Part shown: positions 7,417 through 54,143 of the stretch, piece by piece
Layout of the letters: each line of letters starts with the position of its first letter
How positions within the stretch are numbered: the first letter of the stretch is position 1
NCBI GenBank assembly: GCA_951406725.2
Contig: OX597819.1
Location: 65,720,001-65,784,000, forward strand
Reading direction: 5' to 3'
From: Octopus vulgaris
Taxonomy: Eukaryota
DNA: 64,000 nucleotides
Program-made: the position numbers and the translations under genes
Notes under the pieces: generated by a model
Seen by the model: only the letters and a program-made list of their open reading frames with translations
What the model was told of the DNA's origin: nothing
Databases searched by the model: none

Positions 7417-8100
7417 GTAATAATAATACTAATAATAAAAAGAGCAATAATGATCATGGTTATGATGATAATGTCGACGACGACGATGATTCCACTTCTA
7501 CTACTTTTAATAATAATAGAAGAAAATCGAATGCAATAAAGAATTGAATAGCAAACTGGAAATTAAGAAATATATACATACACGCATACATACATATATT
7601 CGTGTGTGTGTGTGTGTGCGTGTGTGTGTGTGTATGTAGTGTAGAGACACACAGAGACACACACATGCAATCATACATACATGAATACATGCTTACATAT
7701 GCTTAATTTTATATACATACATAGAGTTATGCACACACACATATATGTCTGTACATATACATATGCATTATATATATATATATATTTATTTATATAATTA
7801 TATATATATATGTTTGTGTGCGTTTGCGTGTATGTGTGTGTAAGCGAATATTAAGTAGTTTAAGCAAACAAAAACGGTCTCAATACCAAATATAGAGTCG
7901 TACATCTTTACTAAATTACTGAATAAGATACATTCATTGCCTCTGGTGATTTCTAATACAAATAGATCATTGTGTTTGGATTAGTCCAAACTATGAATCA
8001 CAGCCGCAGAAACGCATGGCAGTGAAATTACTGTATGTAATATAACTGAAAATCCGGCGATTTCTTCCAGATACAACATGTGCCAATAATTCGGTTGCCA

Positions 8101-8162
8101 TAATAAAAATCTGAGTTTCGTATAACGGAGCGGAAATTGCTCCGGCATCTCGTCAGTTATTA
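8101..8162 (-). ncRNA. Second, partly decayed hammerhead motif (inverted copy)
   Basis: Minus strand reads TAATAA-CTGACGA-GATGCCGGAGC-AATTTCC-GCTCCGTTATAC-GAAACTCAGATTT-TTATTA; the base of stem II and stem III are mutated. Confidence 0.5.
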
Positions 8163-8223
8163 ATAACTGACGAGATGCCGGAGCAGGTTTCCGCTCCGAC
8201 ATCCGAAACTCGAAGTTTTATTA
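8161..8223 (+). ncRNA. Type-I hammerhead ribozyme motif
   Basis: Stem I TAATAA(8161-66)/TTATTA(8218-23); CTGACGA 8167-73; stem II GATGCCGGAGC/GCTCCGACATC (10 of 11 bp, plus one extra C before GAAA); GAAA 8205-08; stem III ACT/AGT; predicted cleavage after GUU at 8217. Confidence 0.7.
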
Positions 8224-8320
8224 TGACAACCGAATAATTGTCACATACTGCATAATATAAATTCCTCTATTTATTTAATATTGAGGTCTCATTCATTATT
8301 TTGTTGACGATCTGGCAGAC

Positions 8321-8556
8321 AAGGCGGCGAGCTGGCAGCAGACACGTTAGGGCGCCGGGCGAAATGCTTAGCGGTATTTCGTCTGTCGATACGTTCTGAG
8401 TTCAAATTCCGCCGAGGTCAACTTTGTCTTTCATCCTTTCGGGGTCGATAAATAAAGTACCAGTTTCGCACTGGGGTCGATATAATCGACTCAATCCATT
8501 CGTCTGTCCTTGTTTGTCCCCTCTATGTTTATCCCCTTCTGGGCAGTAAAGAAATA
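8321..8556 (+). mobile_element. SINE family A, long-tail form
   Basis: GGCGGCGAGCTGGCAG head, GAGTTCAAATTCC, core, tail ...GGGCAGTAAAGAAATA; a second partial tail follows to about 8625. Confidence 0.9.
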
Positions 8557-9384
8557 TATATATGTAATCGACTTCATCCCTTTCTCTGTCCTTGTTTGTC
8601 CATGCTATGTTTAGCCCCCTGTTTGTTATAAAAAGATTAACATCGTTTATTCTGATTCACGTTATTGAAAGTTTTGGAGGGAATCACTGAACGTGACAAA
8701 TGCTTCGTAAGGAATTATCGGTACTACGGTGATTTTCGTCCATATGATAAGCTATTCCATGTGACTAACGGACGAGAATTTCGACTTTCTGGTTTTAGAA
8801 TTTCAATCGCTTTAACTATTATTTCAGTATTTCTCATAAATTTTAGAACAAATCGTACCTTTTTTGTTCTACTTCTTTCGGCTACAGCGCCGTTACAGGA
8901 AACCAGTACGCATATGATTGAAAGTCGAGCGTAGACGCGTTTATCTACTTAAACACTGGCTTCTTAACTGCATATTATTGCCTTCACTTATGTTAATATT
9001 TCTGAATATTTTCAATATTTTATTGAAATGCTTTTACAGGAGTGACCACTCCTACTTGCGTTTTAAACTTTACCACTGCAATCAATAATTGCATGTGTTG
9101 TCTGAGCACATTGATGTCATTGTATGTTATTGTTACTAATTTATACGTGAGAGGTTTCCATATTTTATATATTGTTTAAAGAAAATTTCTTCAGGCAAAT
9201 TTATCTTACTTCGGTCATATGACTGTGGAGCACCGCCTTGGGGAATTTTCGTCGAATGTACAATTTTTAAAGCTTGATACTCATACTACAGGTCTCTTCT
9301 GACGAGCCATTAAGTGACAGGGACATTAACACAACGCCGATTGTCAAGAGGTGGTGGGGAACAAAGACAGGAGAGAGACACATA

Positions 9385-22448: not shown

Positions 22449-23235
22449 AATAATGATAAAAAGTGACAACAAAAGAATGAGACCTCGATATGAGGTGAAT
22501 AGAGGATTATTTATAATTATAGTTTAGGACAATCAGTAAGTTGCCATTATAGAGTTTCAAATTATGACAACTTACAGATTGTCCTAAGCTATACATACTT
22601 ATATTCATACATACATATATATCTATATCTATCTTTATCTCTGCTTCTTAATTTTATGTTACCTATTTAATTAAAGACATTCCAGCGTAATCCATGAGTC
22701 TTCCATTGCTATTATATTCGTTTTCTTCTCTTATATATATATATATATGTATTTATATATAAGTATGTATGTATGTATATGTGTGTCTGTGTTTGTCCCC
22801 CAACATCACAGTTGCATAAATCTGTGTTTGGCACCCACCACCACCATTTTATTGCATAAATCTAATTAAGTGAATTTTAATTAATTTGCTCCTTGTTAGC
22901 CTTGTTTTTACACATTTCTCTGAACGTACATATGCATATGTTTATGTATGTCTATGAATTTGTTTGTATGTGTTTGTGTATGTATGTATATGATTGTATA
23001 AGTAGTATTGTATGTTTGTATACGTGTATGTGTATATGTATATATATGTGTATGTGTGTGTGTGTGTATGCGATGTTAGTGTGTTTACGTTCCCGTAACT
23101 TAGCGGTTCGGCAAAAGACACCGATAAAATAAGTACTAGGGTTACAGAGAATAAGTCCTCGAATCGATTTGTTCGACTGAAAGGCGGTGCTCCAGCATGG
23201 TTGCAGTTAAATGACTGAAACAAGTAAAAGAGTAA
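22235..23235 (+). mobile_element. SINE family B split by nested insertions (5' half 22235-22395, 3' parts about 22780-22808 and 23070-23235)
   Basis: Both halves match the intact copies; the intervening DNA contains a hairpin element and a locally templated duplication. Confidence 0.75.
22455..22595 (-). mobile_element. Collapsed fold-back element related to 8078-8310
   Basis: Inverted arms of 33 bp (about 22518-22550 / 22561-22593, roughly 29 of 33 matches) around a 10-nt spacer that retains GAAACTC on the minus strand. Confidence 0.65.
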
Positions 23236-24797: not shown

Positions 24798-25012
24798 AAG
24801 GCAGCGAGCTGGCAGAAAAACGTTAGCAGGCCGGGCGAAACGCTTAGCAGCATTTCATCTGTCTTTATGTTCTGAGTTCAAATTCCGCCGAGGTCGATTT
24901 TGCCTTTCATTCTTTCAGTGTCGATAAATTAAGAACCAGTTGCGTACTGGGGTTGATCTAATCAACTGGCCCTTTCCCCAAAAGGTTCGGGCCTTGGGCC
25001 TAGAGTAGAAAA
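24798..25012 (+). mobile_element. SINE family A, short-tail form
   Basis: Head, B-box, core and tail all present. Confidence 0.9.
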
Positions 25013-42255: not shown

Positions 42256-42690
42256 TTTTCTACTCTAGGCACAAGATTCGAAATGTTGTTGGGGGGGGGG
42301 GGGGGGTTGGCAGTCGATTAGCTCGACTCCAGTACACAACTGGTACATAATTTTTCGATCTAGAAAGGATGAAAGGCAAAGTCGACCTCGGCTGATTTTG
42401 AACGGACAAAATGCCGCTTAGCATTTCGTCCGGCGTGCTAAAGTTTCTGCCAGCTCGCCACCTATTCCTCAACAAAATATTCGTTTTTACTCTAAGCATA
42501 AGGCCCGAAATTTTGGGAGGGGGCCAGTTGATTAGATCGACCCCAATACGCAACTGGTACTTATTTTATCGACCCCAAAAGGATGAAAAGCAAACTCGAC
42601 CTGGGGGGAATTTGAACTCAGAACTTAAAGACAGACGAAATACTGCTAAGCATTACACCCGGCGTGCTAATGTTTCTGCCAGCTCGCTGA
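42256..42690 (-). mobile_element. Two tandem SINE family A copies (42256-42462, 42485-42690)
   Basis: Each has a CTGCCAGCTCGC head (plus view) and an AAGGATGAAA core. Confidence 0.88.
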
Positions 42691-42864
42691 CTTTGTATTA
42701 TTATAATTATTGATCATTATTCAATAGAGATGAATCCGTAGGTTCTATGGACAATCGTTACGAGACAGCGTTCGTAACTCGGGGGGTTTTCTAGTTTAAG
42801 CCGCTACTTTTCGAAATCCAGAGGTCACAGCCCCGGTATGGTGAACTTGCGATAAGAATTACGC

Positions 42865-47847: not shown

Positions 47848-49440
47848 TGTTTCTTTATTAGCCACACAAGGCTGGACACAGACAGGACAAATTACAAGGT
47901 AGAGCTTTTCTTTTGGGGGTAAAAAAGGGGGTTTGGTTTTCGATCAAAAGGGATCGTAAAAGGAAAGAAAGAGGACAAAAAAGGTGGGGATAACATTTTT
48001 AAAAAATGTGAAAAGGAAAAAAATTGATCAATAGGGATCGTTATCACAGAAATATCAATATGAAGTGTAAAGGGGAGAACAGGTGAAGTTTACCCGTGGA
48101 AAGAAAAGCCGACGGAAAAGACCACGGTAACGTCGGTCAATGAAGTCACATGTTATATTTTTTTTTACAAATAAGCAACTCTCTGTATTAATTTTTACGG
48201 TTCATAGGATCATAGTCAAAGTGGCCTCGTCATTCATACGTGCCATCCTTGCTACATTCACCCATCTTTTTTTAAAACATTCACTAGACAAAACTTGCCT
48301 CTCTACTCACTTTCCTCTTCAAGTGATACTTGAAGAAGTTGATGAGAGATTGACCAGAGAGGAAAGTGTTTGTCTCTAATCCTTTCAGGCGCGTCCACCA
48401 GATACATTCTTTCGCCATAGCCACAAGTATGATAAAAATAGCTCTTCCTTCCCGTTTGAAGGAAGGAGGCGTGACGATATTAACGATAGACTCGGCTGAT
48501 AAACCGACACGTCCCACACGTGACAGCAGTCGTTCGACATAAGCCCACAGGTCGGTAATTGTTGGACACTGCACGATTGCGTGCAGAACGGTTTCGTCGC
48601 TCTGACCGCATCTCAGGCAGGTCGGCTCCGTGTTTCTCGAGCCATGCCTATAGAGCTTATCCCGAACGGATAGCGCTTCTCGGTAGCACCGCCAGGTCAG
48701 GGATCTCTGGAAGTTGTCCATAGATCCCGGCCCGAAAGTCGTTTCAAACAAGCAGGTCAGGTATTCCTCGTCGACGCCCAGGTTTGCCCCAAGATCGTCG
48801 TCGTTCCTCCCCCCCCCCCCCCCCCACTAATCCCCTATAGAATGCTTTGGTTGTGTTGAAGTCACTCAAGGTCGACCCGGGACGGCAGAGTTGCTTCAGA
48901 GCAACGCGACACTCGCGGTGCCATTCGCCCATCCTCCGCCTCTTTTTGATCCACGACTGCAGTTCGGTCATGGAGACGAGCTGCGGGAAAGCGTGCCTCA
49001 CAAACGGCGACCACACCTGTTCACCGTCGTCTACATAGAGCCGGAGATGTCGCAGTCTCAGCGCGTGTCTGCGCATCATCAACCACGGCATGCCCAGCCC
49101 TCCTTTTAACGGGTGTTGACAGCAAATGGATCGCCTGACCATCGGGGGCGCATCCTTTCCACAAGAAGCGGAAGAGAATGCGTTCTAGTTTGGTGATGGT
49201 AGGGTCGAGACAAGGTACGACGGTCAGGCGGTAGTACATGATGGATGCGATGTACGTGTTCGCCACCTCCGCCCGACCTTTTAGGGACAGTTTCCTCTCG
49301 GCCCATTGCCAGGCGATAGTGACCACCCTACTCGTTATCTCGTTCCCGTTCTTCACCATTTGGAGGTCCGGACCGAACCAGACCCCGAGCAACTCAACCG
49401 GGCCGTCCGTCCAGCGTCCCACGACGGAGGTACTGGTGGA
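47848..49440 (-). mobile_element. 5'-truncated Tx1/L1-clade LINE (ORF2 RT C-terminus, zf-RVT, 3' UTR), frameshifted
   Basis: Three overlapping minus ORFs give LLGVWFG, LSLKGRAEVANTYIASIMYY, FRFLWKG, KGGLGMP, WRCYREALSVRDKL and CLRCGQSDETVLHAIVQC; AATAAA at 47859-47854; high GC relative to the flanks. Confidence 0.9.
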
Positions 49441-49442
49441 TT

Positions 49443-49493
<51 letters not shown>

Positions 49494-49594
49494 TGATAGA
49501 TAGATTGATAGATAGATAGACAGACAATCAGACAGACTGACAGATAGATTGATAGATAGATAGACAGACAATCAGACAGACTGACACATAGATT

Positions 49595-53756: not shown

Positions 53757-54143
53757 TCTTTTCTACTCTAGGCACGAAGCCCGAAATTTTGTGGGAGGGA
53801 GCCAGTGGATTATATCGACCCCAGTATGCAACAGTTACTTAATTTAACAAGCCCGAAAGGCAAAATCGATCTCAGCGGAATTTGGACTCAAAACGCAAAG
53901 ACAGACAAAATACCTATTTCTTTACTACCCAGAAGGGGCTAAACACAGAGAGGACAAACAAGGACAGACAAACGGATTAAGTCGATTATATCGACCCTAA
54001 TGCGTAACTGGTACTTATTTAATCGACCTCGAAAGGATGAAAGGCAAAGTCGACCTCCGCGGAATTTGAACTCAGAACGTAACAGCAGACAAAATACGGC
54101 TAAGCATTTCGCCCGGCGTGCTGACGTTTCTGCCAGCTCACCG
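53757..54143 (-). mobile_element. SINE family A composite/dimeric form
   Basis: Same architecture and junction as 695-1083. Confidence 0.85.

Follow-up and report, generated by a model that had tools for sequence, protein, structure and literature searches.

The window, i.e., the whole 64-kb stretch of DNA that was analysed, holds at positions 8138-8185 a perfect 48-bp palindrome with two arms of 24 bp and an axis at 8161/8162, which is unique within the window at an arm length of at least 10 bp and a GC content above 15%. It forms the centre of two inverted arms (8078-8161 and 8162-8246) that align with 87% identity over 85 columns (E 5e-24), whereby the inverted arms of about 85 bp, the zero spacer and the perfect centre described in an earlier note on this DNA were confirmed. 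The arms differ from each other at 12 of 89 columns, and the + arm extends past 8246 to about 8309; loose ends of family contigs cluster near 8247 and 8305-8306. The features assigned to the locus, including the hammerhead ribozyme (HHR) motifs of both arms, are as follows.

8036-8045, - strand: probably where the inverted arm truly ends on its short side, as suggested by 10 nt matching the short end of the family in the orientation of the arm
8078-8161, - strand: inverted, 5'-truncated copy of the pLTR, tail-less (short 3' end), with a decayed HHR; 87% identical to the + arm
8101-8162, - strand: decayed type-I HHR with a UUU triplet; CTGACGA core at 8156-8150, GAAA at 8119-8116, H17 at 8107
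8138-8185, no strand: perfect palindrome, each half corresponding to the family majority sequence
8160-8163, no strand: junction, TTAA common to both arms (4-nt overlap), which belongs to the element itself and lies 7 nt upstream of C3
8161-8223, + strand: type-I minimal HHR with all 11 core positions intact and a GUU triplet; outer stem I lost to truncation
8162-8309, + strand: direct, 5'-truncated 3' end of the pLTR, comprising the HHR, the stretch that follows it and the larger part of the tail; ~17 nt absent at the end
8255-8309, + strand: tail, present on the + arm alone and spanning the interval between the two family 3' ends
8320-8640, + strand: unrelated SINE-like repeat adjoining the tail, outside the element, and recurring more than 10 times elsewhere in the window

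The shared TTAA at 8160-8163 suggests that the arms were joined by microhomology or fold-back. Approximately 32 unrelated bases with an imperfect inverted repeat (8046-8077) apparently intrude into the - arm at its short end, and the SINE-like repeat at 8320-8640 is probably a later insertion which clipped the long end of the element. Pieces of the same repeat (more than 10, with 74-91% identity) were found at 520-1084, 24798-24967, 42312-42693, 53804-54143 and other positions. The locus copy has no (TA)n flanks, and no target-site duplication was seen by eye at the locus, where both ends are disturbed and for a family whose ends lie in microsatellites.

The parent element and its family

Using as query the endonuclease-like frame found upstream in a tail-selected locus, 30 loci were obtained, whereby the arm lies downstream of the endonuclease on the same strand in 17, mostly after a 3' UTR of ~0.5-1 kb, and inverted at the 5' side in 7. 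Walking upstream from the endonuclease led to reverse transcriptase (RT) motifs and then to near full-length copies; among the loci listed, 12 of 25 have the arm as 5' pLTR, its end lying ~125 nt ahead of the start codon. As read from the sequence, these positions show the arm to be the pLTR of a Penelope-like element with RT plus an endonuclease (EN) of GIY-YIG type at its C-terminus, and they support the earlier suggestion that minimal type-I HHRs of the kind known from Penelope pLTRs are present here. Side by side with this, it was observed in five of the loci with a 5' pLTR (L099, L092, L104, L113 and L120) that both family 3' ends reside inside the 5' untranslated stretch before the start codon, so that priming would be internal to a tandem transcript. 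The family short end is located at a TTACAG word, which we take to resemble a 3' splice site.

The open reading frame carries, in several copies, the motifs RWK (RMRWKAFF) and DKT (FSDKTKN), and possesses a CxCx5C linker (CSCRDKNLC) followed by a C-terminal IIY...YVG without cysteines, whereas no CCHH was found. According to Craig et al. 2021 (PMC8557442), RWK, DKT, CxCx5C, the lack of CCHH and a C-terminal EN are marks of the Hydra clade, and the putative assignment of the family to this clade rests on these motifs and on a hand comparison, not on a tree. By hand count, the N-terminus agrees with that of Hydra-1_Obim at 28 of its first 43 residues (65% identity), and since the HHR differs in its stems and in the helix III word, the family was suggested to be a sister of Hydra-1_Obim. 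It possesses clear pLTRs and a 3' UTR of ~0.9 kb, whereas PMC8557442 lists Hydra-1_Obim without a pLTR. The helix III word of the family is self-complementary and equals that of Hydra-2_aMil; searching the supplement of PMC8557442 with this 9-nt word and with the N-terminal octapeptide gave no match to the family, and no paper on it was found in the literature searched, which covered sources outside subscription. Among protein databases, Pfam returned GIY-YIG for the reading frame at E 0.11-0.17, i.e., below cut-off, and no RT match, and searches of PDB and Pfam with pieces of the frame yielded nothing significant; 132 homologues of at most 49% identity were found.

Searching the 2.8-Gb genome with the palindrome yielded 1977 first-look candidates, of which 40 were scored. 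A 27-nt core word has 219 exact matches genome-wide (control 0). Of 112 other arms, 17 contain it without mismatch, from which ~1,400 arms were estimated, a rough and likely low figure as those arms were picked by similarity. Three duplicate sites (L138, L039, L053), local alignments below 76% identity and pairs with fewer than 40-72 shared columns, depending on the test, were dropped before the counts. Within a shape-blind sample of 69 copies, taken in genome order by means of the 27-nt word, single arms account for 42 and head-to-head pairs for 25, the remaining 2 being of another form; among tail-selected copies, 19 of 29 are head-to-head. The earlier view of the second arm as an inverted partial copy was supported. 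The aligned copies differ in their centres, and one arm usually runs a further 65-70 nt, the tail of a full copy, before reaching a (TA)n tract. Pairs from all sets (n=81) mostly combine a long with a short arm (75 cases); both arms are long in 2 and short in 4. Most listed family ends abut (TA)n or (AC)n, whereby the (TA)n insertion preference, a trait of the Hydra clade, was found in most of them. At L049 (oriented 880-1600) the endonuclease end is joined nearly directly to an HHR arm, the 3' UTR being deleted.

The junctions vary in form, as some arms overlap by a few bases while others are set apart by spacers hundreds of bases long, and both core spans are kept in 6 of 26 shape-blind pairs. 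The earlier note had proposed selection on the axis and a count of copies sharing it. This proposal was not supported, as the 24-nt centre has its exact match at this locus only and 6 sites at no more than 2 mismatches as compared to 2 in the control, three of the six (L122, L124, L125) being counted by pattern with family membership unchecked. Given the broad junction spread and the centre matched exactly here only, the zero-spacer form with two ribozymes is therefore one draw from this spread, joined at the element's own TTAA. Of 47 truncated copies, 7 have their 5' end at the HHR edge (-15 to 0; p 0.09), and no pile-up of 5' ends at the cut site was found among them.

Formation of the head-to-head arms

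By every structural test run, the locus is an EN+ Penelope-like insertion that has been truncated and includes an inverted pLTR. Taken together with the clade assignment, it is very probably an old, truncated 3' end of a Hydra-clade Penelope-like element to which a shorter, inverted copy is joined head to head, a structure that was likely made at integration and has likely been inactive since; its arms have diverged by ~13% from each other. The suggested course of events assumes that the element protein would cut both strands at an AT-rich target, whereupon two short cDNAs would be primed at two internal start sites, the distance of which defines the tail. The synthesis of both cDNAs would stop ~7 nt upstream of the HHR core, their ends then being joined via the element's own TTAA, giving rise to the zero-spacer palindrome; fold-back self-priming may be an alternative route. 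Two start sites combined with end joining would yield one tailed and one tail-less arm, arranged head to head.

Several published systems resemble this picture. For the Poseidon element PAc, cutting and extension of both strands, AT-rich targets and two RT start sites whose spacing equals the tail were reported in vitro (Frangieh et al. 2024, PMC11167929). The family shares with PAc the two 3' ends and the AT-rich targets, but PAc belongs to a different clade and its HHR overlaps the start codon (PMC11167929), whereas the cut site is located ~210 nt upstream here. Head-to-head pLTRs with junction palindromes were described by Arkhipova et al. 2013 (PMC3846280) and read as self-priming; the locus agrees with them in the head-to-head arrangement, the junction overlap and the single-arm tail, and differs in that the insertion is merely ~150 + 85 bp, that both arms begin just upstream of the HHR and that the tail measures 65-70 nt as compared to 31-37 nt there (30-40 nt in the papers cited here). 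The locus itself is ordinary, its insertion shape being already described for Penelope-like elements. New is an abundant, putative Hydra-clade family in which the pLTRs are clear, the tail measures 65-70 nt and several HHR subfamilies show compensatory stem changes. Its one-tailed pairs (75 of 81) lend genomic support, from a clade other than that of PAc, to the priming from two start sites which was shown for PAc in vitro.

A different origin would be that the palindrome was made or is maintained after insertion, by DNA template switching or by hairpin-mediated arm-to-arm conversion which erases differences near the axis; we regard this as unlikely, albeit as the best of the alternatives. The clean centre of the locus speaks for it, as none of the 12 differences falls within the inner 24 of 89 columns, with a p of 0.017 that was computed after the locus had been chosen for its clean centre. 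Over the perfect 24 bp, however, both arms equal the family majority and share no variant, the one variant common to both arms lying outside, and the recent correction that the earlier note had claimed for this locus thus found no backing. Across 47 pairs, inner, middle and outer 24-bp windows have on average 2.3, 3.0 and 2.6 differences (Wilcoxon p 0.24), and windows without differences occur in 9, 5 and 5 pairs from inner to outer, i.e., the inner ones are not significantly cleaner.

Shared variants amount to 0.030 per site in true arms and to 0.007 in shuffled partners, a fourfold excess which is expected from arms copied from one template, and shared variants may stem from that template. 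In favour of conversion, the 9 pairs with a loop of at most 4 nt hold 12 shared rare variants in 815 sites (22 if subfamily markers are counted in), whereas the other 56 pairs hold 27 in 4318 (permutation p 0.013); this cut-off was chosen after looking, and other cut-offs gave p 0.03-0.09. Among these short-loop pairs, L164 carries the core-breaking A9>T in both arms and L054 four CpG decays in both arms. The centres of L164, L054 and L044 contain rare changes in both arms and are candidates for arm-to-arm conversion. The one-tailed anatomy in turn fits integration, which remains the preferred origin of the pairs, while arm-to-arm correction somewhere in the family is a fair lead. That near-zero-loop Penelope palindromes in this genome undergo such correction after insertion, including ribozyme-breaking and CpG-decay mutations, is a tentative and rather doubtful proposition. 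If it held true, hundreds of pairs with graded loops would offer a natural scale on which to gauge conversion driven by hairpins in the germline of an animal, and would also supply perfect hairpins from which new substrates of small-RNA pathways or editing could be drawn; a rise of shared mutations with shrinking loop would make the family a test of palindrome correction.

Very unlikely, and already largely refuted, is a palindromic non-autonomous element, MITE-like or retrozyme-like, which moves as a unit. Many palindromic copies of ~180 bp exist in the genome, but this set came from a palindromic query, and the constant centre and ends of such a unit were not found, as centres vary from copy to copy. 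None of the 26 shape-blind pairs has a symmetric junction, and the 42 single arms among 69 copies include many that run into the 3' UTR. With non-LTR retrozymes, as described in a preprint (bioRxiv 10.64898/2026.07.22.740005), the locus has in common that it is non-coding, related to pLTRs and equipped with a type-I HHR. Retrozymes, though, are same-strand tandem repeats with at least two HHRs, whereas the inverted pair at the locus allows no transcript with two HHRs. No same-strand tandem HHR units were seen in the window, the only other match to the arm being a second, more decayed pLTR fragment at 22467-22551 (-), which comprises downstream stretch and tail at 75% identity and is devoid of the HHR core.

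The hammerhead motifs and their predicted folds

The + arm was read as a type-I HHR composed of stem I (8161-8166/8218-8223), CTGACGA (8167-8173), stem II (8174-8203) with an extra C at 8204, GAAA (8205-8208), a 3-bp stem III and the triplet GUU (8215-8217) with H17 at 8217, in accordance with the fold proposed in the earlier note. Its description of the - arm as a more decayed equivalent likewise held: the core is kept, but G16.2 is now U, which gives the UUU triplet, the 15.2-16.2 pair is broken and the base of stem II is disrupted. On the + arm, a G>A exchange at 8213 weakens the palindromic helix III which is needed for dimers, whereby the predicted dimer helix III energy drops from -9.7 kcal/mol for the family word to -4.1 for the + arm and -0.4 for the - arm. 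Even for the isolated + arm, the HHR fold (predicted at -14.0 kcal/mol) is not the minimum-energy fold, which has -18.6 kcal/mol; the HHR-constrained fold of the - arm has -2.2 kcal/mol, and HHR-compatible folds as monomers have a predicted probability of ~1e-5. The search with hammerhead models put forward earlier gave no match on the palindrome: Rfam returned no hammerhead, neither for the whole window at gathering score nor for 7900-8700 with E raised to 10, the only models to score being miRNA-type hairpins, all below cut-off and merely reflecting the hairpin.

According to Cervera and de la Pena 2014 (PMC4209133), minimal HHRs of Penelope-like elements are inactive as monomers and weak as dimers, and dual HHR motifs on opposite strands occur at distances of 100-700 bp. 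The motifs at the locus agree with those HHRs in being of type I with a long helix II, a bulged base, G10.1-C11.1 and a palindromic helix III, and the copies are mostly dispersed and truncated in both cases; different are the zero spacer and the extra base on the 3' side of stem II. The PAc HHR, in turn, requires the element protein (PMC11167929).

Covariation among family copies, which had been named beforehand as a test of the motif, was analysed in 35 arms from several subfamilies, the rows of which are related, and compensatory changes were found in the stems. Of the cells in the HHR stems, 87.3% are paired (32-52% in slid controls), and two-sided changes in stems I and II occupy 33 cells as compared to 17.5 after shuffling, a value reached in 0 of 500 shuffles. 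The number of two-sided pairs in these 35 related arms (6), by contrast, is not above the shuffles (347 of 500), and RNAalifold recovered from the 35 arms the inner stem I together with a misfold, but not the HHR fold. The free positions N7 and H17 vary between subfamilies. Core A/T positions changed in 14 of 746 cases and downstream A/T positions in 56 of 1613, hence the core is slightly better kept (p 0.036), whereas retention in G/C and CpG classes is without significant difference between core and downstream. These rates suggest that family copies decay nearly neutrally, and conservation of the HHR is a trait of the active parent lineages rather than of the locus copy. In one subfamily (L111:2324-2401, L113:1060-1137, L120, L109, L117 and L075) CCGAAGA replaces CTGANGA (U4>C); its arms are near-identical with compensated stems I and II, and it appears to be the youngest lineage, its core being non-standard.

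The earlier note had combined both motifs into a selected two-way RNA switch, in which a transcript of either strand adopts either a dsRNA fold, as substrate of ADAR or Dicer, or a self-cleaving HHR fold. As one part of this, a read-through transcript was claimed to form a long hairpin which hides the catalytic core, and the predicted fold of the full transcript (-108.2 kcal/mol) is in line with it. The other part, mutually exclusive dsRNA and self-cleaving folds, was not supported: with the HHR forced, the energy is -47.5 kcal/mol, and due to this gap of ~60 kcal/mol in favour of the hairpin no switch is expected. Moreover, the antisense arm is transcribed first, whichever strand is read, and minimal HHRs of this kind are reported to need a same-strand dimer or the protein of the element (PMC4209133, PMC11167929). 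Read-through RNA would hence be a plain long hairpin. The retention of all 11 core positions and of the GUU site on the + arm and the left junction common to another organism may be quoted for the switch, but an intact core is common anyway (60 of 95 family arms), the - arm has a UUU triplet and broken stems, the palindromic nature of helix III is weakened, the two motifs are never both sense in a single RNA, and the axis lacks conservation among copies. The switch is thus highly improbable, and the HHR motifs at the locus would likely be inactive leftovers of the integrated pLTR ends. No paper on a zero-spacer dual-HHR switch was found in the literature searched, within the same coverage as above; family copies are present in four runs presumed to be RNA, none of which yielded a piece across the axis, an outcome that is neutral as to the locus.

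Least probable of all is that the palindrome is an assembly or library fold-back artefact: none of the contigs listed crosses the axis, yet 12 of 89 columns separate the two arms, like anatomy recurs genome-wide, and the left junction was recovered in two runs, one of them labelled another organism, so that an artefact is unlikely. In DNA run X1, one contig connects the - arm with unique sequence on its left over 7850-8121, at 2 differences; the same link was found over 7955-8109, at 4 differences in 155 nt, in a contig from X6, the run labelled another organism, whereby X6 was counted as independent support because X1 may be the source sample. Elsewhere in the 64-kb window, where no tRNA was found, the broken 3' part of a non-LTR retrotransposon reading frame with a zf-RVT domain (E 7e-9) is located at 48284-49527 (-).
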